56,841 bases of DNA from an uncultured Treponemataceae bacterium (GCA_964571545.1 CAZNCK010000001.1:8944-65784); one strand, 5' to 3'. Counted from the first letter of the stretch, positions 874 through 25,480 are shown. Notes: generated by a model not told the origin, from the letters alone. Program-made: numbers and translations.

Positions 874-1310
874 CCGGTACATAACCCGGGGCATTCCTGT
901 AGACAAACGGTGCGCCCGCTGAGGGCCGCTTGGAATGCCTTGGTCATGTGTAAAACCTCGTCGACTTTCGTGCAGGGTTATGCACTAGGCAAGTCCATAC
1001 CAGGCAAGGCCCTAACACAGGTTTCCACTTATACAGTACCCTTACTATGATTATTACGAATTTATATATATTCAATCATTATAAAACCCTTTTAAACTAT
1101 GAGAGTCTGTTCTCTTGTAGAATTTTCCACTTCTGTATATTCATGTTAACCTGCAACTTTCAATATAAGATAACGTAATAGAAATCGTACAACATTCGAA
1201 CCGGGGTCTGTCCCCCGAAAATCATCATCATTCCTTTTATTGCACGGCTTAACGCTTCTATGATATTCTCGTTTGAATATAATCGCCTTAGGCGATGGAA
1301 TGAGGTAGCC
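874..1310. other. Candidate oriC (dnaA-dnaN intergenic region with AT-rich unwinding block)
   Basis: 437-nt non-coding gap with a strongly AT-rich block at ~1040-1200. Degenerate DnaA-box-like 9-mers: TGTAGACAA 898, TTATGCACT 978, GTTTCCACT 1021, TTTTCCACT 1123. Confidence 0.45.
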
Positions 1311-2414
1311 ATGAAATTCGTCTGCGAAAAGAGCGCCTTCCAGCGCGAGATAGCATTTGCCCAGGAAATAATTTCCTCAAAGAGCGCAATGTCGGTCGTA
1401 TCGAACGTCTACCTGGAAGCGCAGGATGGCTCACTTCTCATACGCGCCACTGACATAAAGATAGGCTTCGAAACGCGCATGCCCGTGGATATCCAAGAGC
1501 CCGGTAGTATGACGGTTTTTTGCGACAAACTTACTGGTATCCTCGCTAGTATTCCCGAAGGCACTATCGAAGTTGACCAGAAAGACACAAAGGTTATCAT
1601 CAAACCCAGCTTCAAAAAGGCCCAGTTCAGCCTGAAAACTATAGCCAGCGAGCAGTTTCCCCAATTGCCTGATATCGACGACGATAAGTATTTTGCATTG
1701 CCGTTGGCTGATTTCAGAGACATGATAGCCCAGACTGTCTTTGCGGTTTCAGACGACGAGACGCGATACTTCATGAATGGCGTTTACCTGGAACGAGTCC
1801 AAGATGGTCTCGTCATGGTAGCTACCGACGGTAGACGCCTCGCATATATCAAGCGTGGTATCACAGAAGGTATACCGGAGTTCAAGGGCGTCATCATTCC
1901 TCCCAAGATACTTTCAGTCGTTCTCCACCGCGCTTCAGACGAAGGGCAGATAATGCTGGCCGTCAATGACAAGAACCTGTTCGTAAAGTTTGGCCAGTAT
2001 AGGCTGAGTTCGGTGCTCATTGAAGGGCAGTTCCCGAACTACCAGAAGGTCGTACCCGATACCCAGAAATATCTCATCACAGTGAAGCGCCAGGATGTCA
2101 TAGATGCTCTTAAGCGCGTGTCAATCTTCGTCGAGCAGAAATCCAGGCGCACATTTTTCGCCATCTCGGCCGACAAGCTGGTTATTTCGTCGGAAGAGAC
2201 AGATATCGGCACCGCACGTGAAGAGATTCCGTGCTCGTACGAGGGTCCGGAATCGGTCATAGCGATGAATTACAAATATATTGAGGAGCCGCTCCGCGCC
2301 ATAGACTCGGAGAACGTCTGTTTCAGATTTACCGAGACTTCCAGAGCTGTGACCGTCTCGCCTGAACCTGAATCCGACTACTTCCATATCCTCATGCCGA
2401 TGCAGGTCGATTGA
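1311..2414 (+). CDS. dnaN: DNA polymerase III beta sliding clamp
   Basis: MKFVCEKSAFQREIAFAQEIISSKS... is a typical DnaN N-terminus, ~367 aa, with a C-terminus ending MPMQVD. ATG at 1311 is preferred over the ORF-track start 1260 (GGAATGAGG precedes it). Synteny dnaA-dnaN-recF. Confidence 0.95.
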   Translation: MKFVCEKSAFQREIAFAQEIISSKSAMSVVSNVYLEAQDGSLLIRATDIKIGFETRMPVDIQEPGSMTVFCDKLTGILASIPEGTIEVDQKDTKVIIKPSFKKAQFSLKTIASEQFPQLPDIDDDKYFALPLADFRDMIAQTVFAVSDDETRYFMNGVYLERVQDGLVMVATDGRRLAYIKRGITEGIPEFKGVIIPPKILSVVLHRASDEGQIMLAVNDKNLFVKFGQYRLSSVLIEGQFPNYQKVVPDTQKYLITVKRQDVIDALKRVSIFVEQKSRRTFFAISADKLVISSEETDIGTAREEIPCSYEGPESVIAMNYKYIEEPLRAIDSENVCFRFTETSRAVTVSPEPESDYFHILMPMQVD

Positions 2415-2433
2415 ACCGTCAGCGTAACGGCTG

Positions 2434-3504
2434 ATGTCGTTTTCTAGCATTGAAACCGTATCGTTCCGTAATCTTGCGGACGGGGCTGTCCATACAGACG
2501 CCTCGTCCGTTTTCGTCGTCGGGGATAATGGGCAGGGTAAGACAAACTTTCTAGATGCCGTCTATACGCTCTGCTACGGCTCCTCTTTCAGGGATTCACA
2601 GGATGCTGATGCGGCACGGCTGGGCGGCCAGGTCTGGTCTGTCCGAGGTACCAATCCCGACGGTTCAGGTTGCCGTGTTTCATGGAACTCCGGCCAGAAA
2701 TCGATACGCGAGGATGACAAGCCGATTCACGATCGCAAACGGCTGGTGGAACGCAATCCGGCCATAGTGTTCTGCCACGACGACATGGAATTCGCTCGAG
2801 GCGAACCCGAACGTAGGCGTTTTTTCTTCGACCAAACCGCCAGTCTTGTCTCCATAGGCTACATAGACCTTCTCCGCGCGTATCGCAGGGCGCTCAAAGC
2901 CAGAAACGTCGCCCTTAAGGAACGCAGCCTAGACGTGCTGGACGTGCTGGATATTCAGGTTGCTACGTACGGCCTTGGGCTACGCGACGAACGCGCCAGG
3001 CTAGCAGTGGAGTTCGACGAACGCTTTGCGCCGCGTTACGAGCTGGTTTCCAGGCTCGGAAGCCGGGTGGGCGTGGCATACCGGCCTTCCTGGAAGCTCG
3101 ACGATTCTGTGGATACCGTCGTCTCCAGGCTGGGCCAGGGCCGCGAGCGGGAGCTTGCACTGGGCACAAGCCTGTCGGGTCCGCACCGGGACCGCTTCAT
3201 ATTCACTGACGAGCGAGGGGACTTCTCGGACCGGGCTTCTACCGGACAGCTCAGACTTCTTAGCCTGACCCTGCGCATTGCACAGGCTGAGCACTATGCA
3301 GTCGTTTCCGGCAGACCTCCGGTACTGTTGCTTGACGACGTGCTCCTGGAACTTGATCCTGAAAAGCGGCGTCGGTTCATGGAGAACCTGCCAGAGGCCG
3401 ACCAGACTTTTTTTACCTTCCTGCCTGGCGAACCATACCGGGATTACACGCAGAGCGACACTATCGTATACTGGACGGACGATGGACGATTCTCGCGTAC
3501 GTAA
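2434..3504 (+). CDS. recF: DNA replication/repair protein RecF
   Basis: Walker A GDNGQGKTNFLDA, SMC-type signature STGQLRLLSLTLRIAQ, Walker B PVLLLDDVLLELD. Located after dnaN. Confidence 0.93.
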   Translation: MSFSSIETVSFRNLADGAVHTDASSVFVVGDNGQGKTNFLDAVYTLCYGSSFRDSQDADAARLGGQVWSVRGTNPDGSGCRVSWNSGQKSIREDDKPIHDRKRLVERNPAIVFCHDDMEFARGEPERRRFFFDQTASLVSIGYIDLLRAYRRALKARNVALKERSLDVLDVLDIQVATYGLGLRDERARLAVEFDERFAPRYELVSRLGSRVGVAYRPSWKLDDSVDTVVSRLGQGRERELALGTSLSGPHRDRFIFTDERGDFSDRASTGQLRLLSLTLRIAQAEHYAVVSGRPPVLLLDDVLLELDPEKRRRFMENLPEADQTFFTFLPGEPYRDYTQSDTIVYWTDDGRFSRT

Positions 3505-4081
3505 GGCCTCCGACCTTCTCGGCTCTCTCCTGTCTCCCAAAGCCGCGGCCCAGGCAGATGGCTGGTCGCGTTTCTTTGGCTTTTGGACCAAAGCCGCCGG
3601 CGAGAACCTTGCCGCCCACTCGCGGCCTGTCGACGTGCGCAACGGCATCGTCTACGTGGAGACCACGCATCCCGGCTGGATCCAGTTGCTCCAGATGGAA
3701 CAGAACCGCATCCTGGATACGATACGGCGCACCTTCCCCGAACTCGGCATCTCGGGCATCGCGTTCAGGCTCGCCAGGGACGGCTCCCTGCCCGGCACCG
3801 TTCGCATCACCCGAGCCAGCAGCCCTGAAACAGCAGATGCCGGGGGTCTGTCCCCGGAAGGGCAGGCCGACGGCATCTGCCTCGGGGATCAGACGCGGGC
3901 TGGAAGCGGCATGAAGCCCGAGAAGATGCCGTCGGTAGCGCAGACAATACGGGGCGTCACCGACGATTCGTTCCGAAGCATACTCTCGTCGCTGGCGAGC
4001 ACCCTAAACGAGGCCAACCGGGAAGCCGGCGTCAAGGCCAGAGCCACGACGGCCGAAGACGGGCACAACGGCGGGGTCTGA
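3482..4081 (+). CDS. DUF721 (DciA-like) protein
   Basis: Start MDDSRVRKASDLLGSLL overlaps the recF stop. Core W..AAGENLAAHSRPVDVRNGIVYVETTHPGWIQLLQMEQNRILDTI matches the DUF721 pattern commonly found after recF. Low-complexity C-terminal tail. Confidence 0.7.
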   Translation: MDDSRVRKASDLLGSLLSPKAAAQADGWSRFFGFWTKAAGENLAAHSRPVDVRNGIVYVETTHPGWIQLLQMEQNRILDTIRRTFPELGISGIAFRLARDGSLPGTVRITRASSPETADAGGLSPEGQADGICLGDQTRAGSGMKPEKMPSVAQTIRGVTDDSFRSILSSLASTLNEANREAGVKARATTAEDGHNGGV

Positions 4082-4168
4082 CCCCTTGTGGTCCGATGAG
4101 GGGAACTGCATGGATTTGTGCTTGATTTTTATAGCTCTACCCCGTATCGTGACGGACTTACGAAGCTT

Positions 4169-4507
4169 ATGAACCAAGTGATCAACATAGACGTGTACGG
4201 CAAGGCCGAAGACCAGATCTGCGCCGGTTGCGAGCATTCGTGCGGCGACTGCAAACCAGGAACCAAACGGCGGACCATAGAGCTGGTCGACGAGTTCAGG
4301 ACGCTCCTCGCAGCCTCGGATATCGGGGCATGCTACTCGGTAACATTCTACGAATCAACGCCCCAGAACATCGCCAGGAACTACGACGTTCAGAAGTTGC
4401 TGTCGATGGCGAGCCTCGAACCAGTCGTCTGCCTGGGCGGCAAGGTTACCTATCTCGGCGGCTTCAGCCCCGAGGGCCTCCTCTCGGAATTACGCAAGAA
4501 ACAGTAA
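4169..4507 (+). CDS. Small Cys-rich thioredoxin-fold-like protein (YuzD/DUF1462-like?)
   Basis: MNQVINIDVYGKAEDQICAGCEHSCGDC... has the layout of YuzD-type putative disulfide oxidoreductases (I.VYGAE.iCAsC). The assignment is by eye only. Confidence 0.4.
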   Translation: MNQVINIDVYGKAEDQICAGCEHSCGDCKPGTKRRTIELVDEFRTLLAASDIGACYSVTFYESTPQNIARNYDVQKLLSMASLEPVVCLGGKVTYLGGFSPEGLLSELRKKQ

Positions 4508-4517
4508 GGGTGCAAAC

Positions 4518-6917
4518 ATGGAATTGAACGACGAATTCATAGCCGGACTCGAAGTAGTCAAGACCGATCTCCTGAACCGCATAGCCGCTCAGCTTACGAT
4601 ACGCGCCAGCCAGGCCGCAGCTGTCGTCGAACTGACGGCAGAAGGTAGCACGGTGCCGTTCATCAGCCGTTACCGCAAGGAGCGCACAGGAGAACTCGAT
4701 GAAGTCCAGGTTCGTGACGTGGTCCACCTGCACCAGAGCATGACCAATCTGGAGACCCGTCGCATAGAGGTGATCCAGGCTATTTACGGCCAGGGCAAGC
4801 TCTCCGAGGAGCTGTACGGGAATATCCGCAAGTGTGCCACTCTCACCGAGATCGAGGACATTTACGCGCCGTATAAACGCAAGAAGAAGACCCGAGGTAT
4901 GGTCGCCATAGAGAAGGGACTCGAGCCGCTTGCGGAGCTGATGTTGAAGAAGAATGCCGCGGCCGTTCTCGCCGCGGCTACCGGATTCATCAGGGAGGAC
5001 GCCGAGCATCCGGAGCTCTCCGTAGCCTGCGCCGAGGACGCCATTAAGGGCGCCGTGGACATCATTGCCGAGCGGGTGTCCCAGGACCCCGAGAACCGCG
5101 TTGCGGTCAAGAAACTATACCTGCGCGATGGCTTCATGACCGTCAAGGGCTTGGGCGACGAGAAGAAGAAGGAATCAAGCACCTATCAGATGTACTGGGA
5201 CTACCGCGAGCCCCTGGGGTCTCTCAAGCCCCATCGCGTGTTGGCGATCAACCGCGGCGAGCGCGAAGGTGAGCTGGAAGTGGGCTTGGAAGTCGACGAG
5301 GATGCTGCGGTCAAACGCCTTCAGGAGCGCTACGAGCTTGCTAACGAATACCATGCCGACGCGGTGGACGAGGCGTTACGTCGGCTTGTATCGCCCGCCG
5401 TACTCCGCGAGATACGCTCCGAGGCTCTGGACCAGGCTGACGGCCACGGCATTGCGGTGTTCAGCGAGAATCTGAAAAACCTGCTTCTGTCGGCCCCGAT
5501 CAAGGGCACACGCGTGCTAGGCGTCGATCCGGGGATACGTACCGGCACCAAGTGCGCCGCCATAGATGAGACGGGTAAGTTCCTGGGGTACTTCGTGGTG
5601 TACCAGGAGCAGAAGCCCGACGAGGCGCGCAAGGCCATTGCCAAGGCCATCAAGGACTATGCCATCCAACTGGTCGCGGTGGGCAACGGCACCGGTAGCC
5701 ATGACGTGCAGAAGATAGTTTCCGAGGCCCTCGTTGAACTCGGTGGGGAGTCCAAGTACGCCGTCGTGGACGAGGACGGCGCGTCCGTATATTCCGCCAG
5801 CGACATAGCGCGCGAAGAATTTCCCGAGCTTGATCTGACGATACGAGGCGCCATTTCCATAGGCAGGCGCATCCAGGACCCGCTCGCCGAGCTGGTCAAG
5901 ATCGACCCCAAGAGCATAGGCGTTGGCCTGTACCAGCACGACGTCAACCAGAAGAGACTTTCCGAGACAGTCGACGAGGTGGTGGAGTCGGTGGTCAACC
6001 GGGTGGGCGTCAACATCAACACGGCCAGCCACATGCTCCTTAAGTACGTCTCCGGCATCAATTCTTCGCTGGCCAAGAAAATAGTCAAGTTTCGCGACGA
6101 GAACGGCAAGATCACGAGCCGTGACCAGCTCAAGGCCGTATCCGGCATGGGTGAGAAGAGCTATGAACAATGTGCTGGCTTTCTCAAGATACCCGGCAGT
6201 GCCAACCCTCTAGACAACACCTGGGTGCATCCTGAGCACTACGAGTTGGCAAGCGAGATCCTGGAAGGCGTCCGCGCAGGAAAGGATCCGTCCAGGGAGC
6301 AACGCGCCGGTCTCAAGGAGAAGTATGCTGTCGGCGACACGACTATCGACGACATCATCGCGGAGCTCAAGAAACCAAACCGCGACCCGCGCGACGATTA
6401 TCCCAAGCCCCTGCTCCAGCAGGGCGTTCTGGCCTTCGACGACCTCAAGGAAGGCATGAAGGTCACCGGCAAGGTCAAGAACGTCGTAGACTTCGGCGCC
6501 TTCGTCGACATCGGCATCAAGGAGAGCGCCCTCATCCACGTCTCCGAGCTCTCCGACCAGTTCGTCAAGGACCCGATGGACGTGCTCAAGGTGGGCGACG
6601 TCAAGGAATTCAGGATCATTTCCCTCGATCTGGCGCGCAGGCGCATAGGTCTGTCCCTGAAGAGCGAACGCAGGCCTGACGGCCAGGGCACGCCGCGTCC
6701 TGAAGGCTCCCAGACAAATTCGTCTTCAGGCGCGCGCCGCGTCGTCGTCGCACGCAAGCCCGAGGGACAGACCCTGGGGTCGGCCGCAAACCCGGCGAGA
6801 TCAGTCGAGGGACAGACCCCGAGGTCGCCGCGGTCGGGCGTCAAGTCTGTTTCGGAGCGCGACGATGACGGGTCTAGCTACAATCCTTTTGCCGAGCTGC
6901 TCAAGAATCGGAAATAG
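4518..6917 (+). CDS. tex: Tex-like transcription accessory protein (YqgF/HhH/S1 domains)
   Basis: 799 aa. N-terminal ASQAAAVVELTAEGSTVPFISRYRKERTG, YqgF-like VLGVDPGIRTGTK, C-terminal S1 domain GKVKNVVDFGAFVDIG...HVSEL. Low-complexity tail containing two motif copies. Confidence 0.92.
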   Translation: MELNDEFIAGLEVVKTDLLNRIAAQLTIRASQAAAVVELTAEGSTVPFISRYRKERTGELDEVQVRDVVHLHQSMTNLETRRIEVIQAIYGQGKLSEELYGNIRKCATLTEIEDIYAPYKRKKKTRGMVAIEKGLEPLAELMLKKNAAAVLAAATGFIREDAEHPELSVACAEDAIKGAVDIIAERVSQDPENRVAVKKLYLRDGFMTVKGLGDEKKKESSTYQMYWDYREPLGSLKPHRVLAINRGEREGELEVGLEVDEDAAVKRLQERYELANEYHADAVDEALRRLVSPAVLREIRSEALDQADGHGIAVFSENLKNLLLSAPIKGTRVLGVDPGIRTGTKCAAIDETGKFLGYFVVYQEQKPDEARKAIAKAIKDYAIQLVAVGNGTGSHDVQKIVSEALVELGGESKYAVVDEDGASVYSASDIAREEFPELDLTIRGAISIGRRIQDPLAELVKIDPKSIGVGLYQHDVNQKRLSETVDEVVESVVNRVGVNINTASHMLLKYVSGINSSLAKKIVKFRDENGKITSRDQLKAVSGMGEKSYEQCAGFLKIPGSANPLDNTWVHPEHYELASEILEGVRAGKDPSREQRAGLKEKYAVGDTTIDDIIAELKKPNRDPRDDYPKPLLQQGVLAFDDLKEGMKVTGKVKNVVDFGAFVDIGIKESALIHVSELSDQFVKDPMDVLKVGDVKEFRIISLDLARRRIGLSLKSERRPDGQGTPRPEGSQTNSSSGARRVVVARKPEGQTLGSAANPARSVEGQTPRSPRSGVKSVSERDDDGSSYNPFAELLKNRK

Positions 6918-6979
6918 ACGCCATTTTAATTATTTTTGTTTGAATTCCCGGGGCCGCGCGCAGGTGCGGTCCCTTTTCT

Positions 6980-7396: not shown

Positions 7397-7402
7397 ATCG
7401 AC

Positions 7403-8506
7403 ATGAGCGGAACAAAACGGACCAGGGCGCGGCAGCACATCGAACCCATTTTCAAGAGTGTGGCGTCCGGCAGCGCTGGGTCTGTCCCCGGTTCACCCGT
7501 CTACATAGGCGACAAGGCTCCGACCGAGGCCGCGTTCTCGCTGATCCAGTACGACCACGAAGAAATCTCGTTCGTTACCCCGGAGAACATCGAGGAAGTG
7601 CTGGCGATGCTTGAGGATGGCATGGTCAACTGGATCAACATCAATGGGCTTGCAGACCAGGACGCAATCAAACGCCTAGGCGGCTTCTTCAAGCTCGACT
7701 CTTTGACCATCGAAGACATTCTCAACACCGAACATCGCCCTAAAATAGAGGATTTCGGTCGCTATCTTCTCATTATCACCAAGATGTTGACGCGGAGGCC
7801 TGACGACACGATCGAGTATGAACAAGTTGCCATTGTGCTCACCAGCAATTCGGTACTGACCATCCAGGAAAGTCCGGGGGACTGTTTTGGCCCCGTGCGC
7901 GACCGGCTCAGGACCGCAACGGGTAGGCTGAGGCGTATGAAATCCAGTTTTCTTGCCTACGCGCTCATAGACGTCATCGTTGACAATTACTTTGCCCTCC
8001 TGGAGTGGCTTGGCAACAGGCTTGAGGAGCTTGAGGAGACAAGCGCCTCTGCCCGCGAGGCCTCGGGATTCATGGCTGGGTTACAGACGGTCAAGGCGGA
8101 CCTTAATCGCTTCAGGCGCATCGTGTGGCCGGTAAGGGAGACCATCGGCGTTCTCCTCCATTCCGATTCGGAGTTGCTCGAAGACTCACTGGAACCTTTC
8201 TTCCGGGACCTCCAGGAAAATTCGGTACAGGTCATCGAGGCGTTGGAAAGCTACCGGGAAACGGCGACCGGCATACAGGAAGTTTTTTTTTCGTCGGTGT
8301 CCAACCGGATGAACGAAGTGATGAAGGTGCTGACCATCATCTCCACTATCTTCATACCGCTAACGTTCATCGCGGGTGTCTACGGTATGAATTTCAGGTT
8401 CATGCCGGAACTGGACCAACCTTGGGCTTACCCCGCCGCTTGGGGCCTGATGCTGGCCATAGCGGTAGGCATGATCATCTACTTCAAGCGTAAGAAATGG
8501 TTCTGA
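7403..8506 (+). CDS. corA: Magnesium/cobalt transporter CorA
   Basis: 367 aa. C-terminal two TM helices with the signature YGMNF (GVYGMNFRFMPEL). Confidence 0.9.
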   Translation: MSGTKRTRARQHIEPIFKSVASGSAGSVPGSPVYIGDKAPTEAAFSLIQYDHEEISFVTPENIEEVLAMLEDGMVNWININGLADQDAIKRLGGFFKLDSLTIEDILNTEHRPKIEDFGRYLLIITKMLTRRPDDTIEYEQVAIVLTSNSVLTIQESPGDCFGPVRDRLRTATGRLRRMKSSFLAYALIDVIVDNYFALLEWLGNRLEELEETSASAREASGFMAGLQTVKADLNRFRRIVWPVRETIGVLLHSDSELLEDSLEPFFRDLQENSVQVIEALESYRETATGIQEVFFSSVSNRMNEVMKVLTIISTIFIPLTFIAGVYGMNFRFMPELDQPWAYPAAWGLMLAIAVGMIIYFKRKKWF

Positions 8507-10019: not shown

Positions 10020-11031
10020 CCTGCTCCTCTCGTCGAGCCCGCACGTCTTTACGGGCGTGACGCCGCAGAAACTCATGCTCGCGGTTATCATCGCGCTGGC
10101 GCCGGTCTCGGTGTACGGTGTCGTGCTCTACGGACTGCCCGCGCTTTTCGTCATGCTTGTGTCCGTAGCCACCGCGGTCCTCTCCGAGGCCGGTTTTCGC
10201 GCCCTCACCAAGCAGGATGTCAGGATCGGCGATCTCTCGGCCGTCGTTACAGGCCTGCTCGTCGCGCTGATATCGCCGCCGTCCATACCGCTGTGGATGG
10301 TCGCCTTGGGCTCGTTCGCCGCCATCGTGCTGGCCAAGGAGTTCTTCGGAGGCCTCGGCGCCAATCCGTTCAACCCCGCGCTCATCGGGCGCGCGATACT
10401 GTTGATGAGCTTTCCGGCCGCGATGACCACGTGGCACATACCGTTCAAGGGTCTGTCTGACGCTACGGCCGGAGCCACACCGCTCAATATCGTTAAGATG
10501 GGCGGTTCGATAGCCGACGTCGGCACGGGCTTCATGCAAAACGGCCTTGCCGCCGCGTCCGACTACAGTTCGACGCTGGTGACGCTGTTCGTGGGCAATC
10601 GCGCCGGTTGTATCGGCGAGAGTTCCATCATGCTGATACTGGTCGGCTTCGTGTTCCTGCTTGCCACTCGTGTAATCTCCTTCATCATTCCCGTCGCGAT
10701 GGTCGGTACCGCGTTCCTCGCCTCATGGGCGTTCGGCATGGACCCTGTCTTCGGCACTCTGTCTGGCGGCATCCTGTTCGGCGCCGTATTCATGGCTACT
10801 GATTACTCTTCCAGCCCGCTAACGCCGCTCGGCAAGTTGCTCTTCGGCGCCGGCGCCGGCCTCGTCACCATTATCATACGCAGGTTCGGCGGCTATCCCG
10901 AAGGCGTAACCTACGGAATCCTCCTTATGAACATGCTGTCGCCATTCATGGATAAGCTCCGCGTGAAGAAGTACGGATTCGTGCCGGCTGTTAAGCCTGC
11001 CAAGCCCGCCAGCAAGGGGGCCGGGAAATGA
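10006..11031 (+). CDS. rnfD: Rnf complex subunit D
   Basis: Polytopic membrane protein with LLSSSPH... N-terminus and FMATDYSSSP (FMN-attachment region, NqrB/RnfD family). Overlaps the rnfC stop. Confidence 0.92.
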   Translation: MPANNLLLSSSPHVFTGVTPQKLMLAVIIALAPVSVYGVVLYGLPALFVMLVSVATAVLSEAGFRALTKQDVRIGDLSAVVTGLLVALISPPSIPLWMVALGSFAAIVLAKEFFGGLGANPFNPALIGRAILLMSFPAAMTTWHIPFKGLSDATAGATPLNIVKMGGSIADVGTGFMQNGLAAASDYSSTLVTLFVGNRAGCIGESSIMLILVGFVFLLATRVISFIIPVAMVGTAFLASWAFGMDPVFGTLSGGILFGAVFMATDYSSSPLTPLGKLLFGAGAGLVTIIIRRFGGYPEGVTYGILLMNMLSPFMDKLRVKKYGFVPAVKPAKPASKGAGK

Positions 11032-12253: not shown

Positions 12254-12825
12254 ACCTCGGCACGATATTTCTAGCCTCTCTACTCGTCGAGAACGTTGTT
12301 CTCATGCGCTTCCTGGCCCTGTGCTCATACGTCGGCATGACCTCCGATGTCGGCCAGTCCGTAGGCATGGGCTTCGCCGTGACCTTCGTCACAGTACTCG
12401 CCACCGCAGCCACCTGGCCCATCTACCATTTTATACTCGTCCCCCTCGGGATAGAGTTTCTGCAGATTCTCGTTTTCATACTGGTGATAGCCAGTCTCGT
12501 GCAGCTCGTCGAGTTCTACCTCAAGAAGAACGTTCCGGGCCTGTACGCCGCCATGGGCATTTACCTGCCGCTGATAACGACCAACTGTGCTATTCTGGCC
12601 GTCACGTTTGACAACATCACGAAGAATTACAACCTCATCCAGTCAATCGTGTATGCCGTCGGTGTCTCGGCAGGGTACCTGCTGGCCATGGTACTGCTCG
12701 CTGGAGTCAGGGACCGCATTAAGACTAGCCCGATACCGAAGTTTCTGCAGGGAACGCCGATCCTGTTCGTCGCGACGGGACTCATCACCGTCGCCTTCAT
12801 GGGCTTCGCCGGAATGATTAAGTAG
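12250..12825 (+). CDS. rnfA: Rnf complex subunit A
   Basis: ENVVLMRFLALCSYVG...GIYLPLITTNCAILAV is typical RnfA/NqrE. Confidence 0.92.
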   Translation: MNLGTIFLASLLVENVVLMRFLALCSYVGMTSDVGQSVGMGFAVTFVTVLATAATWPIYHFILVPLGIEFLQILVFILVIASLVQLVEFYLKKNVPGLYAAMGIYLPLITTNCAILAVTFDNITKNYNLIQSIVYAVGVSAGYLLAMVLLAGVRDRIKTSPIPKFLQGTPILFVATGLITVAFMGFAGMIK

Positions 12826-12837
12826 GAGGATCCGAAC

Positions 12838-13680
12838 ATGACTATTGTATTGATTACACTCGGATTCTCGGCCATCCTCGCGTTTTCTCTCGGCGCGGCC
12901 CTGGGCTTCTTCAAAGAGAAGTTCAAGGTGGAACGCGACCCCAAGATAGATGAAGTACGCAACGTACTGCCTAGTTATAACTGTGGTGGCTGCGGATATC
13001 CTGGTTGCGACGGCTATGCCGAAGCCGTGGCCCACGGTGACGCTCCGGTGGCCAAGTGCGCACCCGGCGGCAAGGCTGTCTCGGAAGCGCTTGCTGCCTT
13101 GATGGGCGTCAACGCTTCCGCCGAAGACACAGTCGCCGTGCTCTTGTGTCAGGGCAAGAAAGACGTCGCCCCTGCCAAGGGCCAGTACGTAGGCGTCCCG
13201 ACCTGTCGCGCCGCCAAGCTTTCCACCGGCGGCACCAAGCTCTGCTCGTACGGCTGTATGGGTTTCGGCGACTGCGCCAAGGTCTGCATGTTCGACGCGC
13301 TCCATATGGGAGACGACGGCTTGCCCCACGTCGACTACGAGAAGTGCACAGGCTGTGGTATGTGCATCAAAGAATGCCCCCAACAGATTCTGGGGTCTGT
13401 CCCCCGAGCCAGGTTGGGTTCAGTCGTCGTGTGCTCGAACCGCGCTGTCGTCAAGGCGACCGTGATGAAAAGCTGCAAGGTCGGCTGCATCAAGTGTGAG
13501 GCCTGCGTCCGCGCCTGCCCTGAGCAATGCATCACGATGGTCAACGGTATACCCGTTACGGACTACACTAAGTGTACTTCCTGTGGAATATGTGTACAGA
13601 AGTGCCCGACCAAGTGCTACAAGCTCCTGGAAACGGACATAAGGGGTAAGGTTGTTGTAGCAGAGACCGGTTTAGTCTGA
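12838..13680 (+). CDS. rnfB: Rnf complex subunit B (polyferredoxin)
   Basis: N-terminal anchor, CGGCGYPGCDGYAEA cluster, then several CxxCxxCxxxCP ferredoxin motifs. Good RBS (AGGAGG). Confidence 0.92.
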   Translation: MTIVLITLGFSAILAFSLGAALGFFKEKFKVERDPKIDEVRNVLPSYNCGGCGYPGCDGYAEAVAHGDAPVAKCAPGGKAVSEALAALMGVNASAEDTVAVLLCQGKKDVAPAKGQYVGVPTCRAAKLSTGGTKLCSYGCMGFGDCAKVCMFDALHMGDDGLPHVDYEKCTGCGMCIKECPQQILGSVPRARLGSVVVCSNRAVVKATVMKSCKVGCIKCEACVRACPEQCITMVNGIPVTDYTKCTSCGICVQKCPTKCYKLLETDIRGKVVVAETGLV

Positions 13681-13706: not shown

Positions 13707-13753
13707 GGGGACAGACCCCCTAAGTTCGCATCGCGAATTTCAGGGTCTGTCCC
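13707..13753. repeat. Inverted pair of the hyper-abundant motif (hairpin-forming), between rnfB and the RayT-like gene
   Basis: GGGGACAGACCCCC (13707-13720), 22-nt spacer, GGGTCTGTCCC (13743-13753). Confidence 0.85.
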
Positions 13754-13790: not shown

Positions 13791-14285
13791 ATGCGTTTTT
13801 CTACGTTCAGTTGTATGCGACAAAAACGCTTATTACTTCCCGGAGCCATGTATCACATAACGATGCGGGTCAACCACCAACAAATGCAGCTGAGGCCTAT
13901 CGCTGTTAAGGAGCTGTATATAAAGGTGGTTGAAGATGCAAAGTTAAAATACAAGTTCAGGATCGAGACTTTCTGTATCATGGATAATCATGTGCATTTC
14001 ATTATCCAGCCTGATATTGACGAGAGTATTTCTAGGATCATGCAATGGATAAACGGGGTATTTGCCATGAGGTACAACCGGTTGATGTCTATCGGGGGCA
14101 GTTTCTGGGGTGAACGTTTCTACTCTAGAATACTCCAACGGTTGAAAGATTACCTCAGAACGCTTGAATATATAGAAGAGAATCCTGTCAGGGCTAATCT
14201 TGTTTACTGTGCGGTAGACTGGTTATTCGGTGGTGCGAGGCACAGGGCGGATGGGTGTGAAAGTATCTTGGATTTTTCGGGCTAA
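13791..14285 (+). CDS. IS200/IS605-type Y1 (HUH) transposase-like protein, RayT-like, solitary
   Basis: HUH motif FCIMDNHVHFIIQP and catalytic Tyr region GERFYSRIL, then ...YIEENPVRANL. No obvious IS ends and no tnpB partner. Local AT-rich DNA. Confidence 0.8.
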   Translation: MRFSTFSCMRQKRLLLPGAMYHITMRVNHQQMQLRPIAVKELYIKVVEDAKLKYKFRIETFCIMDNHVHFIIQPDIDESISRIMQWINGVFAMRYNRLMSIGGSFWGERFYSRILQRLKDYLRTLEYIEENPVRANLVYCAVDWLFGGARHRADGCESILDFSG

Positions 14286-14309: not shown

Positions 14310-14338
14310 TTGACACCTTTGCATTGAATACGTATACT
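14310..14338 (+). promoter_or_regulatory. Strong sigma70-type promoter
   Basis: TTGACA (14310-14315), 17-nt spacer, TATACT (14333-14338). Confidence 0.55.
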
Positions 14339-14344
14339 TAAGTT

Positions 14345-14503
14345 AAGCGGTTTTTTATAGATCGTTTTTCCGGAACAATTTTTGTTCCGCCCAATTTCAG
14401 TCCATCTTTTAGAACGGGTTAATCCCGCTCTTATAGATGGGCCAGCGCGAGTTTCGCAACTTTGCGCTTTTTATCATATCGTCGCTTCGGCGACTTTTTT
14501 TTT
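14345..14503 (+). ncRNA. Candidate small RNA or tRNA leader (promoter to hairpin/T-run)
   Basis: ~160 nt with no credible ORF, between the promoter and the hairpin GTCGCTTCGGCGAC + T9 (14481-14503). Internal hairpin GGAACAATTTTTGTTCC. Confidence 0.25.
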
Positions 14504-14605: not shown

Positions 14606-14644
14606 TATGTAGGAGCAATTTTGAGGGTCTGTCCCTTTATTGGA

Positions 14645-15913: not shown

Positions 15914-16205
15914 TGCTCCACCTTCTTCTTGAGAGAGAAGAATAACATTGAAATAATAAGCAGAGTAAGATTGAATTGTAGTTAAAATATCCATAATGTC
16001 AATAAAAAGTCAAAGAGTTCTGCGAATTTACCGATAATTGTGATGTTCCTTTCAAAAGGGACAGACCCCGAAGGGATTGTTGCCATCATATTATATACGT
16101 TGACCAAAGTATACGGAAAGTCTATAATCCGGCGGCTATAGTTACGAGAAAAGCTCTCGGACGGTGTTTACCGTCCGTGGGGATATATTCCGAGGAGACA
16201 TCGTC

Positions 16206-16366: not shown

Positions 16367-16732
16367 GTGTCGGACGACGAGCGGGGCGCATCAGGTTTCC
16401 GTTTTCGGAAATCTGAGCGTATCCGTACGCGACGCGACATATCTAGGGTGTTCGACGAAGGGGTCCGTTGGTCCGGCAGAGGGCTACGCCTGAACGTCAG
16501 GCCTAACGGCGGCGCGGAAACCCGCGCCGTTTTCGTTACCGTGCGCAAGTATGGCAATGCCGTAGCCAGGAACAAGGCGCGAAGAGTCGTGTCCGAGTGT
16601 TGGCGCCTGATGAAACCATCGATCGTACCCGGTATGGACGTTGTCGTTGTCATTTTCCCCGGCGATGATCGCTTTGAGCTCCGCAACGGCCAGCTCGAAG
16701 CGGTGCTGCGTCGAGCTTCGCTGGCGGTATAG
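16367..16732 (+). CDS. rnpA: RNase P protein component
   Basis: [19 protein letters not shown]...[15 protein letters not shown]; position after rpmH; GTG start. Confidence 0.88.
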
Positions 16733-16736
16733 ATCA

Positions 16737-16958
16737 ATGAACCGGATCTTCTCGGTCGTAGTGCAAGCACCGATTCGATTTTACCGGGTAGCTCTGTCCC
16801 CGCTCAAGCCTCGTTCGTGCCGCTATCATCCCACCTGTTCTGCCTATGCGCTCGAGGCCATCGAGCGGCACGGTGCCGTGCGAGGCACAGCCATGGCTAT
16901 GAAGAGAATCCTGCGCTGTAATCCATTTCATCCGGGAGGTTTCGATCCGGTCCTATGA
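16737..16958 (+). CDS. yidD: Membrane protein insertion efficiency factor YidD
   Basis: [34 protein letters not shown]...[16 protein letters not shown]. Confidence 0.92.
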
Positions 16959-18820
16959 GCATAAACAACGACGACAACAACAAGGCGTTTGACGCCAAGA
17001 CGATGATTGCCATTGTACTGATGGTGGTTGTCATAACGGTCGGCATGGCCGTCCAGAACTACTTCTTTCCGAAGCCCGGCCTGCCGGTTGAATCCCAGTC
17101 CACCCAAGCTCCGGCCGCGACACAGGCACAACCTGCAACGGTAGCCCAGGTTGGTTCAACAACGGGCAACTTGTCGGCTTTGGCTCTCGCCGAAACACTC
17201 GATGCGCCCGTGAGTGAGGCCACGTATGTGCTGAACACCGGCCTGTTCAAGGCTCAGTTCTCCAACAAAGGCGGCGAACTTGTGTCCCTGAAGCTCAAGG
17301 AGCACAAGGAAAAGGGCGAACCAGTCGAACTGCTTCTCGCTAAGGGCGGCAGAGTAGAAGGATTCTCCCTTGCTTTTGGTGGCGCGGGGTCTGTCCCTCT
17401 GGAGGCCCTCTTTACAACGACCCAGCCCGCACCCGGCGTTATCGTGTTCTCGCGATCGTTTCTGGCTCCGAATGCTTCCGGCGTTCAGGTACCGTTCACA
17501 CTGAGCAAGCGCTACGAGTTCCATGAAGGCGACTACATGTTCCGCCTTTCGGTGACCGTAGAGAGTTCCGACGGGTCTGTCCCCAGGATGGGCAACGGTG
17601 AGTACGCCTACACGCTCAAGCTCGGTCCCCAGATCGGACCGAGCTACGATGATCTACCCAAGAACGCCGATTTCCGCAAGATCGTCACGTACGAAAACGA
17701 CAAGCGCAAAGTGATCAAAGCCGGCACGCAGTCAGTTCCGTCGAGCAAAGCGACATGGGCGGCTATCGCCGGCAAGTATTTCGCGATCGTCGTGCTACCC
17801 GATGCCACGTCTTATTCGGCCACGTATACGAACCTCATGGTGGATGGCAAGCCTGCGACCGCCTCCATAGCGTTCAGCCGCCCTGTCCTAGGAGCAAGCA
17901 CCCAGACCGATGTCTTCCATATATATGCCGGCCCGAAGCAGGCTGCTGAGCTGGCACGGTACGACGACGTCACCGCCAACGCTTTCAAGCGCTCCGGTGA
18001 CGACCTTGAGGGTATCCTGGAAGGCAACAATATCCTGGGTTGGCTGGAAACGGCCCTCAAGTGGAGCCTCAACTTCTTCCAGAAGTACGTCAACAACTAC
18101 GGCATAGCGATCATACTCGTGACGATACTGGTCCGCGTGATCATGTTCCCTCTGACGTTCAAGGGTAGCCAATCCACCGCCAGGATGGCAGAACTGCAGC
18201 CCAGAATCAAGGAACTCCAAGACAAGTATAAGGGCAATCCCCAGAAACTCAACGCGGAGATGGCCGAGTTCTACAAGAAGGAAGGCTACAACCCGCTGTC
18301 GGGTTGCGCGCCGATGCTCATCCAGTTCCCGATATTCATCGCCATGTACTCGCTGTTTAACAATCACTTCGATCTGCGCGGCGCGTCGTTCATAGCCGGC
18401 TGGATCAACGACTTGTCACTGCCGGAGTCGGTGTATGACTTCAATACGATCAACCTGGTCATTTGGAGGGTCTCGGCCATCCGCATCCTACCAGTGATCT
18501 ACGTTCTCAGCCAGTTGGCCTACGGGCGCTTCATGCAACAACCGACGAGCGGCGGCCAGAGCGCCGGGCAGATGAAGTTCATGATGTACGGTATGCCAAT
18601 CATGTTCTTCTTCATCCTGTACGATGTGCCCTCTGGCTTACTCGTGTACTGGATCGCGTCCAACGTTCTGACAACACTTCAGCAGTTGGTTATTAATAGG
18701 GTTATCCACAAGAAGCGACTCGCCACTGCGGCGGCCGCTCCTGCGCCGTCGCCGGCAGCCAGATCCAAGATCGTTCCGATAAAGAACGGCAAGGGCGGCG
18801 GCAAGAAGGGGCGCGGCTAA
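16955..18820 (+). CDS. yidC: Membrane protein insertase YidC
   Basis: 621 aa. N-terminal TM, large periplasmic domain, C-terminal 60-kDa IMP core ([21 protein letters not shown]...[16 protein letters not shown]...YWIASNVLT). Basic tail. Confidence 0.93.
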
Positions 18821-19577: not shown

Positions 19578-19593
19578 AAAAAAACGATGAAAA

Positions 19594-19621
19594 GCGGCCG
19601 CCCAAAAGGGCGGCTTTTTTT
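19594..19621 (+). terminator. Rho-independent terminator after jag
   Basis: GCCGCCC-AAAA-GGGCGGC followed by T7. Confidence 0.8.
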
Positions 19622-19827
19622 GGCCATAGTCAAGGTCTGTCCCTGGCAAAGGGAATATTTATACATACATCAGGTTAACCACAAAAAATATAATTGGTTA
19701 ACAGAAGTTGTCCTTAATTCGCAATTATTATCGGGACTGTCCCTAAAGATTCCTAAAATTCTATAAATTTGAAAGTACCTTTGGAATGGGGTATCGTTTA
19801 TATTCTTATTGCTTTGGAGGAGGCTTC

Positions 19828-20424: not shown

Positions 20425-20443
20425 GATCATATAGGAGGATACT

Positions 20444-20965: not shown

Positions 20966-21096
20966 CCTTTCATCACTTCCGTTCCTCATGGATTTTACCG
21001 CATGAGCATGCTAGGATTGTGCGGAACGCCACCGTGAGGGACAGACCCGGATTGATAAAGCCGAGCCGAGCCCCTGGAAACTCAAGAGGAACCCCT

Positions 21097-21636: not shown

Positions 21637-22502
21637 TCTGGCTCATAGGCAACAAAGGCATGCTCGGTACCGAACTGTCCCTGGTTTTAAAGCAGCGGGG
21701 TCTGTCCCTCGTTGGCACCGACCGCGAGTTGGACATCCTAGACCCTTCCGCCCTCGAAGCGTTCGCGGCAGGCAAGGATATACGATGGGTTATCAACTGC
21801 GCCGCGTACACCGCCGTGGACAAGGCAGAGGATGAGGAAGCCTTCGCGCTCCGCCTCAACGCGGAAGGCCCTGGCAACATAGCCAGGCTCTGCGCCAGGA
21901 TTGGAGCGAGGGTTATCCACATATCCACAGACTACGTGTTTTCTGGCGAAGGCACGTCCCCCTATCTGGAGTCCGACCCCACAGATCCCACCGGCGCTTA
22001 TGGCAGGACTAAGGCTGAAGGGGAGCGGGTTGTTCTGGGCGAGGCTCCTGACGCCATTATCATTCGCACGGCGTGGCTTTACGGCAGATACGGCCCGAAC
22101 TTCGTGGCAACAATGCTCAAGCTTATGGCCGCCAGGGACGAGATAGGCGTGGTTGCCGACCAAAAGGGCACCCCCACCTGGGCCTATGACCTATCCCAAG
22201 CAGTAGCGGACATAACCACGAAGAATAATTTTCCTGCCGGAATTTACCATTTCACCAACGCGGGCGAAACAACGTGGTACGAATTTGCCCTTGAAATTCA
22301 GCGCGTTGGGACAGACCTCGGCCTCCTCACCCGTACTTGCCGTACTAAGGCGCTTTCGACCGCGGAGTACCCCACCAAAACGAAACGGCCCGCGTATTCT
22401 GTGTTGGCCAAGGACAAGATCCTGGCCGCTGGCATTACTGTGCCCGACTGGAAGATGAGCTTACGTGACTTTCTGACTAGCCTGGGGACAGACCTCGCGT
22501 AG
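21633..22502 (+). CDS. rfbD: dTDP-4-dehydrorhamnose reductase
   Basis: MIWLIGNKGMLGTEL...INCAAYTAVDKAE...ISTDYVFSG...YGRTKAEGE; ATGA overlap with rfbC. Confidence 0.92.
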   Translation: MIWLIGNKGMLGTELSLVLKQRGLSLVGTDRELDILDPSALEAFAAGKDIRWVINCAAYTAVDKAEDEEAFALRLNAEGPGNIARLCARIGARVIHISTDYVFSGEGTSPYLESDPTDPTGAYGRTKAEGERVVLGEAPDAIIIRTAWLYGRYGPNFVATMLKLMAARDEIGVVADQKGTPTWAYDLSQAVADITTKNNFPAGIYHFTNAGETTWYEFALEIQRVGTDLGLLTRTCRTKALSTAEYPTKTKRPAYSVLAKDKILAAGITVPDWKMSLRDFLTSLGTDLA

Positions 22503-22819
22503 GTCAAACGATTCATATTGATTTTACCAAATGGCCGTGATACGCTTGTTCGAAGAATGAACACGAAGAGCGTGTCCTTTGGGAACCACTCGACGACAGA
22601 CTTTCAGGGACGATCGGGAGCGTGTTGCGGCCGCCTCGGGATGCTTTGAAACTACAGCTAATCGATTAAAATTCGCCTTATCGCGGCGAAATGAATTCAC
22701 GTGCCCTGGCCGAGCATCTAGCGGGATTAGATGCCTTCACTAGATAGTATTCGTCTTTGAAAAACCTTCAACTCAATATACCCTCATATCCTCCATGATG
22801 CACTAAAACGATAGGAATC

Positions 22820-23428
22820 ATGACAACGCTAGCCATGGACAGGGCTTCAACGCCAACCGACGACGCCGAGCTCGTCATACTTGAAAACATATACTCTTCC
22901 CAGAAGCGGTCCAGGAATGTCACCCAGCGTGACTTGGCCGAGGCGTCGGGTCTGTCCCTCGGGATGACCAACGCCTTGCTCAAGCGCTTTTCGGAGACGG
23001 GATGGGTGCTTCTCAAGCGGCTGAACGCACGCAACATCCAGTACGTGCTGACCCCCGATGGCGTCAACGAGATAGCGCACCGTACCTATCGCTATTTTAA
23101 GCGTACCGCCAGGGCGGCGGGGCTGTACCGGGACATGATCGAGGCCTTCGTCATCACCAAGAAGCGTGCTGGTGCAACTCGTCTGGTGCTTGCCGGTGTT
23201 TCCGATCTGGACTTCCTTATCGAGTATGCCTGCGAGCGGCACGGCTTACTGTTTATCAAATCGGTCGACCCTGCCAAGGCGGAGCGCCTAGGGACAGACC
23301 CCGGCACCGTCATCGTGCATGCCGAGGGCGATTCTCGGCCGGGCAACGATACGGGAAAGGCGTTTCCCGATGAAAGCCTATCACGAGTACTCGTTGGCGT
23401 AGGCCCAATGGGGACAGACCTCAAATGA
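22820..23428 (+). CDS. Winged-helix (MarR/GntR-like) DNA-binding protein with uncharacterised C-terminal domain
   Basis: VTQRDLAEASGLSLGMTNALLKRFSETGWVLLKRLNARNIQYVLTPDGVNEI resembles a wHTH. Embedded between rfbD and manC. Confidence 0.55.
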   Translation: MTTLAMDRASTPTDDAELVILENIYSSQKRSRNVTQRDLAEASGLSLGMTNALLKRFSETGWVLLKRLNARNIQYVLTPDGVNEIAHRTYRYFKRTARAAGLYRDMIEAFVITKKRAGATRLVLAGVSDLDFLIEYACERHGLLFIKSVDPAKAERLGTDPGTVIVHAEGDSRPGNDTGKAFPDESLSRVLVGVGPMGTDLK

Positions 23429-23477
23429 TATACAAATGATATAACCAGACCTCAAATAATATTATTGAAGGATATCA

Positions 23478-24548
23478 ATGACGACCATCATTCTGTGTGG
23501 CGGTTCTGGCACCAGGCTCTGGCCTCTGTCACGTGTTGCTATGCCCAAACAGTTTGCTGCCATAGTGCCCGGCGGATCTTTGTTCGAAGGCGCCGTCAGA
23601 CGCGGACTGGAACTGGGCTCTGATTTTCTCGTGGCGGCTAACGAGGGACAGACCTTGCTGGCTTCAGCCCAGCTTGCGGGCCTCGGGGTCACTAAGTACG
23701 GTTCGCTGGTGGAGCCGATCGGTCGTAACACGGCGCCCGCGATAGCGCTTGCCTGCATGATGCTGCCGCTCGACAAAGTAGTCTTCGTGGCGCCGAGCGA
23801 CCACTTGATTCGTGGACTGCCCGAATACCATGCGGTGATACGTCGGGGGACAGACCTTGCTAAATCAGGCCAGCTCGTCACCTTCGGCATTGCTCCTACC
23901 TATGCCGAAACCGGCTACGGTTACATAGAATCCGATGGCGAGACGGTAGTCTCCTTCAAAGAGAAACCCGATGCGGAAACCGCGGCGCGCTACGTCGCCT
24001 CGGGCCGTTATTCCTGGAATTCCGGCATGTTCTGCTTTCAGGCCGGGGCGTTTCTTTTAGAGTTGAAGAGGCATTCGCCCGACGTATACAACGCCTGCTT
24101 GAGGGCCTACGAGAAGGCGCCGATCAAGGATCCGCTCAAACCGGCCAAGGACGATATGGCGGCCATTCCGTCCATCAGCGTCGACTATGCGGTTATGGAG
24201 AAGAGCACACATGTTTCCTGCGTGCGCTGTCCCCCGGAGATGCTCTGGAGCGACTTAGGCAGCTACGACGCCCTGTACGACGAGCTCTGTCCCCCGTCGA
24301 GCTTCTCTTCGCCAGCCCCTTCGGACACTCCGCTTAGCAACGCCACGGTGGGATCAACTGAACCAGTACTTGTCCAGTCAAACGGCAACCTGGTCATGTC
24401 CTCGGGCAGACGCATCGTCCTCGTCGACGTGCAGGACCTCGTAATAGTGGACACCCCCGACGCCATCCTCGTGGCTCGACGCGGCTCCACCCAGAAGGTC
24501 AAGGACGCCGTGGACGCGCTTAGAGGGACAGACCCCGGACTGCTTTAG
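23478..24548 (+). CDS. manC: Mannose-1-phosphate guanylyltransferase (NTP-transferase, no PMI domain)
   Basis: [24 protein letters not shown]...[14 protein letters not shown]...PSDHLI...[16 protein letters not shown]...[10 protein letters not shown]. Confidence 0.85.
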
Positions 24549-24571
24549 CAAAACAATCACAAGGAGCTTTC

Positions 24572-25435
24572 ATGAAGGGAATCGTTCTAGCGGGCGGAAC
24601 CGCCACGAGGCTGTTTCCGGCCACGGTGGCCGTGTCTAAGCAGATGCTACCGGTGTACGACAAGCCGATGGTCTACTACCCCATCTCCACGCTCATGCTC
24701 GCGGGCATCAGGGAGATCCTCCTCATATCCACGCCGCGCGACATAGGCGGGTTCAAAGAACTCCTGGGCGACGGCTCAGGCTTCGGACTATCCATCCAGT
24801 ATGCCGTGCAGGACAAGCCGCGCGGCCTGGCCGACGCCTTCATTGTGGGCGAAACGTTCATCGGCAAGGACAAGGTCGCCCTCGTGCTGGGCGACAACGT
24901 CTTCTACGGCCAGAGCTTCACGCAGGTCCTGGAGCGGGCCGCGGCGCGGGCCAGCGGCGCCACAATCTTCGGCTACTACGTCAAGGATCCCAGCTCCTAC
25001 GGCGTCGTCGAGTTCGATACCAACGGAAAGGCCCTTTCTATAGAAGAAAAACCGAAAGTACCCAAGAGTAACTACGCGGTACCTGGCCTCTACTTCTACG
25101 ACAACCACGTGATAGACATCGCAAAGAACGTCAAACCCTCAGGCAGAGGCGAGATCGAAATAACAAGCGTCAACAACGAGTACCTGGCTCGCGGTACTCT
25201 GCAGGTAGAAGTCCTCGGCCGCGGCTTCGCATGGCTGGACACAGGCAATCCCAGCGACCTGTTATCCGCCAGCTCCTACATCGAGGCCATCCAGAACCGC
25301 CAGGGCCTCTATGTCGCCTGCCTCGAGGAAATCGGCTACCACCAGGGCTGGCTGAGCCGTGACGGCCTCCTCGCCGCCGCTGACCTGATGAAGAAGACCG
25401 AGTACGGCGAGTACCTGGCCTACCTGGCAAGGTAA
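24572..25435 (+). CDS. rfbA: Glucose-1-phosphate thymidylyltransferase
   Basis: [53 protein letters not shown]...RGFAWLDTG. Confidence 0.95.
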
Positions 25436-25480
25436 TCTCGCAGCGAGGTCTGTCCCCATAATAGCGTGGCCTTGGTGTAT

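Follow-up and report, generated by a model that had tools for sequence, protein, structure and literature searches.

The subject of this analysis is the 10-mer GGTCTGTCCC (complement GGGACAGACC), hereafter the word, which recurs around a gene whose product is a tyrosine transposase of the REP-associated type (RayT; REP, repetitive extragenic palindrome) in a 56,841-nt stretch of DNA from an uncultured Treponemataceae bacterium (GCA_964571545.1, CAZNCK010000001.1:8944-65784; the whole stretch is called the window). We consider it likely, with a probability of roughly 60%, that the word is what the RayT encoded at 13815-14285, a domesticated HUH/Y1 transposase, specifically recognises, and that copies of the word form a cis-limited array of sites reaching ~10-12 kb to each side of that gene. 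The pairing of RayT with the word recurs in four unrelated spirochaete contexts and in at least two other phyla, and the RayT-linked word found here is an unusual variant, in that it is short, mostly intragenic, born by substitution and confined in cis. We read it as a RayT word rather than as a genome-wide uptake tag because, in the samples available, only those ~10-12 kb on each side are filled. An initial annotation, made from the sequence alone, had preferred a likeness to the DNA uptake sequences (DUS) of Neisseria and the uptake signal sequences (USS) of Pasteurellaceae, and had named as an alternative a REP-like word linked to the neighbouring RayT-like gene; it is the alternative that finds support, from the RayT model, the inverted words that flank the gene, the occurrences in other phyla and the density of copies.

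The RayT gene lies on the plus strand and was called from 13848, with homologues suggesting a start at 13815. Its product passes the NCBIfam model NF047646, "REP-associated tyrosine transposase" (84.2 bits, cutoff 80), and is matched by Pfam Y1_Tnp. Both the HUH motif (NHVHF) and the catalytic Tyr (EYIEENPV) are retained, and they align with those of Escherichia coli TnpA-REP (4ER8), the sole PDB match of the protein. An IS200/IS605 insertion sequence was considered and rejected, as the IS200 model NF033573 falls below its cutoff (26.8, cutoff 55) and the gene is syntenic across species rather than mobile. The order rnfB-RayT-tRNA-Gly recurs in six related species (loci L125, L126, L129, L130, L133 and L224). 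In the window the gene is bracketed by words, at 13708(-)/13744(+) upstream and at 14626(+) downstream, past tRNA-Gly, and inverted words in the species' own dialect likewise flank RayT in L125, L126, L129, L130 and L133. Identity of the syntenic relatives to the window RayT is 42-52% where YidC is 70-77% identical, so that, compared over the same species pairs, divergence is much faster in RayT than in YidC.

A count over the full window gives 25 exact copies of the word (13 on the plus strand and 12 on the minus strand), all within 1205-25456, and none at 25.6-56.8 kb. Across 100 dinucleotide-preserving shuffles the mean was 0.11 copies and the maximum 1. The word is sharply defined, because only seven one-mismatch relatives accompany it, at 2636, 4075, 9533, 16791, 19734, 20659 and 24284. 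A flank preference weakly lengthens it to C-R-R-GGTCTGTCCC-Y, and the 8-mer core TCTGTCCC occurs 27 times in the window, namely in the 25 exact words and in two copies of GCTCTGTCCC (16791 and 24284). Literature searches for the word returned primer coincidences only. Two simple interpretations were tried and rejected: a hairpin GGGG-TCTGT-CCCC, since no covariation is seen in the flanks and pairing is impossible in the other dialects, and a polarity of the Chi/KOPS type, given the 13:12 split of orientations.

Genic copies make up 17 of the 25 (68%) and intergenic copies the other eight, in a region that is ~91% coding. The word is stop-free in every frame; four of the six are used, encoding GLS[LP], GSVP, GTD[LP] and GQT. 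In the word-rich half of the window, 17 of the 18 occurrences of these compatible peptides are encoded by the exact word, and there is none in 7,265 amino acids of proteins from the other half; the signal therefore lies at the DNA level. Much of what the initial annotation had reported survives this recount: the 25 copies, their mixed orientations (13 versus 12), the absence of the word from 25.6-56.8 kb, and the gene placements and encoded peptides are all as it had them. Its coordinates are right except for two that were off by one (6648, not 6649; 17388, not 17389). From its list of one-mismatch relatives (~2636, 4073, 10449, 19733 and 24284), four are kept, with exact positions 2636, 4075, 19734 and 24284, and 9533, 16791 and 20659 are added; the sequence near 10449 has two mismatches (GGTCTGTCTG) and is dropped. 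Its point that copies are read in mixed frames holds for several frames, with the restriction to four of six, and its claim that selection acts on the DNA word and not on a peptide is upheld by site conservation, by the peptide counts and by the tracking of dialects across orthologues.

The word is not genome-wide in the regions sampled. Pooled over eight RayT loci, its density is 2.06 per kb within 1 kb of RayT, 0.6-1.2 at 1-10 kb, 0.27 at 10-13 kb, 0.08 at 13-20 kb and 0 at 20-45 kb. Relative to the RayT gene, the word-rich domain of the window, or halo, reaches 12.6 kb upstream and 11.2 kb downstream. This part has a GC content of 0.55-0.60, versus 0.43-0.51 past 26 kb. A scaffold that continues the window to the equivalent of ~65.7 kb (L217, 8.8 kb added) has no word in that continuation, which has a GC content of 0.52-0.60 and ordinary genes (FtsX permeases and a TP_0789-like lipoprotein-sorting protein). 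The initial description of the word as present in core DNA and absent from an accessory half was an interpretation, not an observation, and "core versus island" as the determinant was rejected, since DNA of 57-60% GC with ordinary genes, including the continuation of the contig, is also word-free. On the HGW-Spirochaetae-3 contig Ga0246094_000138 (243,871 nt), nine copies in the GC dialect lie from 0.6 kb upstream to 7.2 kb downstream of RayT (L224); the remaining 13.6 kb of that locus are word-free, and so are 20.8 kb lying 38-59 kb off on the same 244-kb contig (L222), which have a GC content of 0.59 and include a peptidase M24 gene and a hydrogenase gene. A second contig of Treponema sp. 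MASR2M78 (L221) has one non-dialect match in 12.5 kb, versus 22 around that genome's RayT. Among orthologous yidC loci with enough upstream DNA, six with RayT carry 0.41-1.42 words per kb, versus 0-0.11 at fourteen orthologous yidC loci without RayT.

Relatives were sampled as 80 metagenomic yidC loci, with further loci reached through RayT homologues. The closest relatives (YidC 88-92% identical) have the same word at ~1 per kb; relatives at 61-78% have AGCTCTGTCCC or AACCTCTGTCCCC instead; and more distant yidC loci have none. Three further gene contexts, with 0.8-1.1 words per kb around RayT, come from Breznakiella homolactica (L208, 2.47-2.49 Mb of the genome CP067089.2, with RayT near 2.483 Mb; dialect TACTCTGTCCCC), Treponema sp. 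MASR2M78 (L209; AGCTCTGTCCCC) and Spirochaetales GCA_016926955.1 (L211; AGGTCTGTCCCT). Taken together, the dialects consist of GG, GC, CC or AC followed by TCTGTCCC, at ~1 per kb around each species' own RayT in four unrelated gene contexts, and RayT is the sole gene common to these four. All dialects keep TCTGTCCC(Y) unchanged, and variation affects the 2-4 bases 5' of TCTGTCCC. GC copies persist as a minority in GG and CC lineages, including those at 16791 and 24284 of the window, and L126 has a mixed population of 12 CC and 8 GC copies, which suggests that an older GC dialect is being replaced site by site. Intergenic clusters of words are present in more distant relatives (L126 at 12804-12954, L211 at 16378-16512).

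Beyond the spirochaetes, reference genomes were scanned for the inverted pair GGGACAGACC-N5-35-GGTCTGTCCC, and RayT-like genes beside the matches were then sought by tblastn. Most of the scan matches listed are long, unrelated palindromes or hairpins, from many phyla, with the 10-mer as their core, and at three loci among them a RayT-like gene adjoins such a palindrome. In a Clostridia metagenome-assembled genome (MAG) of 29% GC (L017) the word stands on both sides of the gene; in Desulfobacterium (L085) inverted words lie 218 nt upstream and 264 nt downstream of it; and in Pseudomonas brassicacearum (L010) it is next to the palindrome. A non-spirochaete soil organism (L213, 9800-10850) has a RayT that is 33% identical and flanked by inverted GGGGACGGACTA / TAGTCCGTCCCC; GGGGACGGACTA is a one-base variant of the core, of low copy in that locus (3 in 20 kb). 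This locus suggests that, within this RayT clade, specificity for the core GGGAC(A/G)GAC is old. The word thus matches a RayT-flanking repeat in other phyla, which is not expected of a lineage-specific uptake tag.

The scan also gave a wider view of the palindromes themselves. Longer, taxon-specific palindromes built around the 10-mer, such as cgGGGACAGACCacgttttcc...ggaaaacgtGGTCTGTCCCcg, occur among the matches listed (L001-L120) in many Beta- and Gammaproteobacteria, Clostridia, Bacteroidales, Actinomycetes and others. For a Ferrovaceae MAG, represented by three 8-kb loci (L016, L021 and L056), two of the loci have 8-10 copies, and a Burkholderiales MAG (L113) has the hairpins in a tandem array.

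At the sites checked, the genic copies arose by point substitution at tolerant positions. The window and L124 share 78% identity over 9.4 kb; of 14 word sites in that comparison, 11 are wholly unchanged at the orthologous position, versus 20% of 10-mers in general (P = 4.7e-6), and identity is only 66% in the 12 nt that flank each site on either side. The differences at sites are substitutions and one intergenic flip of orientation. Protein alignments with word-free outgroups or PDB homologues have no indel at the word sites of yidC, manC, corA and rnfB and at one of the three rmlD sites; the second rmlD site falls in an indel-prone variable loop and the third past the aligned region. An origin by insertion was rejected for the sites checked, which lack indels and were gained and lost by substitution, and the orthologue alignment that had been proposed earlier for telling insertion from drift comes out on the side of substitution. 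Orthologous sites are common to species with only 70% YidC identity, each in its own dialect, and the encoded residue tracks that dialect (G/T/S-SVP in YidC, EGQ-T/S/R in ManC, G/S/T-SVP in RnfB). Sites have been rewritten in place when the dialect of a lineage changed, altering residues in YidC, ManC and RnfB.

The window opens with dnaA, dnaN, recF, dciA, tex, a PilZ gene, corA and rnfCDGEAB; there follow the Y1-transposase (RayT) gene, tRNA-Gly, an acylphosphatase gene, two response regulator genes, rpmH, rnpA, yidD, yidC and jag, and then two unknown genes, rmlC, rmlD, a MarR-like winged helix-turn-helix (wHTH) gene, manC and rmlA. Toxin-antitoxin modules and polysaccharide genes occupy its end part. 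The features are as follows.

1205-25456, no strand: word-rich domain (halo), 25 exact and 2 GC-dialect copies
1205-1214, plus: word, intergenic between dnaA and dnaN
3845-3854, plus: word in dciA, encoding GLSP
6648-6657, plus: word in the C-terminal region of tex, encoding GLSL
6764-6773, minus: word in the tex tail, encoding EGQT
6809-6818, minus: word in the tex tail, encoding EGQT
7479-7488, plus: word in corA, GSVP; relatives have GSIP at the same place, with no indel
13394-13403, plus: word in rnfB, GSVP; orthologous sites GC (SSVP) in L125, CC (TSVP) in L126 and L129
13707-13754, no strand: inverted pair GGGGACAGACCCC...GGGTCTGTCCC with palindromic spacer, 28 nt past rnfB and directly upstream of RayT, a T-rich run following the pair
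13708-13717, minus: word, left arm of that pair
13744-13753, plus: word, right arm of that pair
13815-14285, plus: RayT gene (NF047646, HUH, Tyr)
14626-14635, plus: word downstream of RayT and tRNA-Gly; position kept in L129, L130 and L133, in their own dialects
16058-16067, minus: word, intergenic between a response regulator gene and rpmH
16791-16800, plus: GCTCTGTCCC in yidD, GC dialect (probably older)
17388-17397, plus: word in yidC, GSVP; no indel versus outgroups
17574-17583, plus: word in yidC, GSVP; orthologous TSVP (CC) in L128-L133, SSVP (GC) in L134
19634-19643, plus: word 57 nt past jag; in L124 a copy lies at about this position, in reverse orientation
21038-21047, minus: word upstream of rmlC
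21699-21708, plus: word in rmlD, GLSL; gap-free alignment to PDB RmlD sequences
22308-22317, minus: word in rmlD, GTDL, variable loop
22485-22494, minus: word in the last rmlD codons
22949-22958, plus: word in the wHTH/MarR-EPS gene, GLSL; in relatives the peptide is identical but the word is missing
23291-23300, minus: word in the wHTH gene, GTDP
23411-23420, minus: word in the last codons of the wHTH gene
23645-23654, minus: word in manC; site orthologous in six species, EGQT (GG), EGQS (GC), EGQR (CC)
23847-23856, minus: word in manC, GTDL; absent from L124 via 4 substitutions, GC form in L129 and L224
24284-24293, plus: GCTCTGTCCC in manC; common to L124 and L129 at an orthologous site
24525-24534, minus: word in the manC tail, GTDP
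25447-25456, plus: word 12 nt past rmlA, the last before word-free DNA

Several other observations concern the DNA in and around this domain. The gap between RayT and tRNA-Gly (14310-14500, plus strand) holds a candidate small RNA, in which a promoter-like site (TTGACA-N17-TATACT) is followed by ~150 nt with three hairpins and a terminator of the GC-hairpin/T-run kind; it is kept in six species, with compensatory changes in 4 predicted pairs, and has no family in Rfam (best match isrK, 14 bits, cutoff 50). The word-free DNA opens with two nucleotidyltransferase/HepT toxin-antitoxin pairs (25594-27449), which are not a strain-specific insertion because the block is kept at 87% identity in the related species L124. 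Farther on, an open reading frame at 48109-49302 has three to four near-identical copies of its 3' part (48790-49250, 51159-51620, 52771-53000 and ~54936), interleaved with PIN, RelE and HTH toxin-antitoxin genes, and independent assemblies break at ~48.7-49.1 kb, probably from these repeats. The RayT and YidC proteins are 100% identical to those of the MAG "Spirochaetes bacterium GWB1_48_6" (MIAP01000009.1). Binning at NCBI is inconsistent, with the dnaN-RayT-yidC contig placed in GWB1_48_6 and the continuation (the TP_0789-like gene) in "GWB1_59_5"; synteny on the 244-kb HGW-Spirochaetae-3 contig supports the left part of the window and L217 (49.1-65.7 kb equivalent) being contiguous.

In the mechanism that we propose from these sequence comparisons, RayT would bind the word, with the invariant core TCTGTCCC(Y) as the constant contact and the variable 5' dinucleotide as a co-evolving specificity element. 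RayT would act mainly near its own gene, and only sites close by would persist, whether through selection or through a repair bias dependent on RayT; the array would then exist because RayT acts, or is held, near its own gene. Its role might be that of a local sink, keeping a potentially genotoxic nuclease sequestered, or that of a nucleoprotein domain. A more far-reaching version, which we offer tentatively and think rather doubtful, is that a domesticated RayT maintains an array of its own word over a ~20-kb domain, largely inside housekeeping genes, by substitution and not by transposition. This could happen via a cis bias of repair or mutation that turns near-matches into the word, or via selection on a nucleoprotein or sink domain whose co-evolution with the enzyme would be strong enough to alter residues of YidC, ManC and RnfB.

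A number of points weigh against RayT as the reader of a cis-limited array. The chemistry of HUH/Y1 enzymes involves recognition of hairpins in single-stranded DNA and cut-and-paste insertion; as known, it does not explain substitution-born copies, and the GC, CC and AC dialects are without self-complementarity. Density at 1-10 kb from RayT is roughly flat and does not decay smoothly. The word-free samples far from RayT are few, come mostly from the same orthologous region in three genomes (a polysaccharide cluster with the FtsX/TP_0789 genes) and leave out Breznakiella and the L211 genome, and L221 and L209 are joined only by MAG binning. Finally, all assemblies of this population end inside dnaA at the same place (window 1-873), which cuts the upstream edge of the halo.

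The closest of the rival explanations keep a RayT nearby and change its part. If the word were the binding site of some other chromosomal protein, such as a nucleoid, segregation or replication factor, with RayT merely embedded in the array, a regional cluster with sites in genes, cross-species conservation and no strand polarity would be natural, and the cluster here does adjoin dnaA, dnaN and yidC. However, the arrays of Breznakiella, L209 and L211 are not in a dnaA/yidC context, RayT is what the four word-rich contexts share, the same word flanks RayT in other phyla, and a ParB-like gene or similar candidate was looked for in the window without success; we judge this explanation improbable. 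A REP/REPIN family of the ordinary kind, which RayT spreads by transposition and whose copies hop locally into nearby genes, would account for the inverted repeats that flank RayT and for the intergenic clusters in L126 and L211, and transposases often act in cis. REP insertions within genes are also known (PMC3733652). What makes hopping decidedly improbable in our view is the form of the sites: the genic ones examined are without indels relative to outgroups or PDB homologues on alignable residues, gain and loss proceed by substitution, the unit is 10-12 nt and not a 20-40-nt palindrome, there is one inverted doublet among 25 copies, and species at 70% YidC identity have orthologous sites in common, each with its own dialect.

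An uptake sequence of the DUS/USS kind, spread through the core genome by receptor preference, uptake and recombination, is suggested by the spacing (~1 per kb in both orientations), by the inverted pair at a gene end and by the absence of the word from low-GC DNA. The 68% of copies that are genic, in restricted frames, compare with 65% for the USS of Haemophilus influenzae (PMC2817400), and species dialects with conservation of orthologous sites are seen in Neisseriaceae as well (PMC3630211). Yet there is no word in 40 kb of contiguous DNA to the right or in the 20.8 kb of L222, no dialect word in L221, and no competence gene in the 66 kb seen (window and continuation), and RayT genes of other phyla have the identical 10-mer linked to them. 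The uptake explanation fails because of the regional confinement and the cross-phylum link to RayT, and we hold it to be very unlikely; the initial annotation, which favoured it, had itself named confinement as the observation to count against it, and the word is regionally confined in every case sampled. A compositional or chance artefact, or a by-product of codon usage in common peptides, might be entertained for a GC-rich word whose word-free half is lower in GC. None of the 100 shuffles reaches 2 copies, though, the word is absent from the 57-60% GC DNA of L217 and L222 and present beside RayT in a genome of 29% GC, and the encoded peptides occur 18 times in one half and never in the other, so that we give this possibility next to no weight.

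Comparison with known systems places the RayT-linked word between several of them. REP/REPIN-RAYT systems (REPtrons) of Proteobacteria are alike in having a RayT with HUH and Tyr flanked by inverted short repeats, in a location that stays within one intergenic space across related species, as is consistent with vertical inheritance, and in the differences of repeat sequence and RayT among lineages; some species known to have REPtrons lack a dispersed REP family (PMC3733652). The REP unit is an imperfect palindrome of 20-40 nt and the REPIN a doublet of ~100 bp; these repeats are "almost exclusively extragenic", genome-wide and in hundreds of copies, and are thought to be spread by RayT-mediated duplication (10.1101/2021.07.10.451892). 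In contrast, the unit here is 10-12 nt, mostly singleton, non-palindromic in most dialects and without a GTAG or CGTC tag; it is mostly intragenic (17/25), created by substitution, kept to the two flanks of RayT, and falls to a density of 0 beyond 20 kb, within limited sampling. Intragenic REPs and Rickettsia palindromic elements (RPE) resemble it in placing repeat-derived sequence in functional coding genes, often in tails or loops. They are in-frame insertions that add roughly 20-80 residues (PMC3733652), whereas the word sites are substitutions that add none. The resemblance to DUS of Neisseriaceae and USS of Pasteurellaceae is real in pattern (10-12-nt words at ~1 per kb locally and in both orientations, favoured frames with particular peptides inflated, dialects around a constant core, conserved orthologous sites, occasional inverted pairs at gene ends) and not in distribution, as DUS and USS are genome-wide and centred on no gene, whereas the word is regional and RayT-centred, with no uptake machinery or receptor implicated. 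The parS sites bound by ParB are 16-bp palindromes that cluster over tens of kb around parAB, many in coding sequence; the array here shares the short, conserved, clustered sites, many of them coding, near the gene of a (here candidate) binding protein, but the word is asymmetric, no ParB-like gene was found in the window, and it is an HUH nuclease that is the candidate for binding. HIP1 (GCGATCGC) of cyanobacteria is likewise a hyper-abundant short genic word, substitution-born and conserved beyond neutral expectation; it is palindromic, genome-wide and without a linked RayT, unlike the regional, RayT-linked word described here.

These results carry a caution, in that DUS-like statistics within one window (density, frames, dialects and orthologous conservation) do not establish an uptake sequence. 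If the more far-reaching version of our proposal were true, a cis bias of repair or mutation would be a new mode of repeat propagation. There is clear evidence that the sites persist and change together with the enzyme, even where this alters amino acids of conserved proteins. The role of RayT for its hosts and the origin of REP-type repeats are open questions, for which this lineage gives an unusually clean handle: one RayT, one short word and a bounded array. Breznakiella homolactica, a cultured relative with a complete genome, has the same arrangement in another dialect, which makes experiments on RayT feasible.

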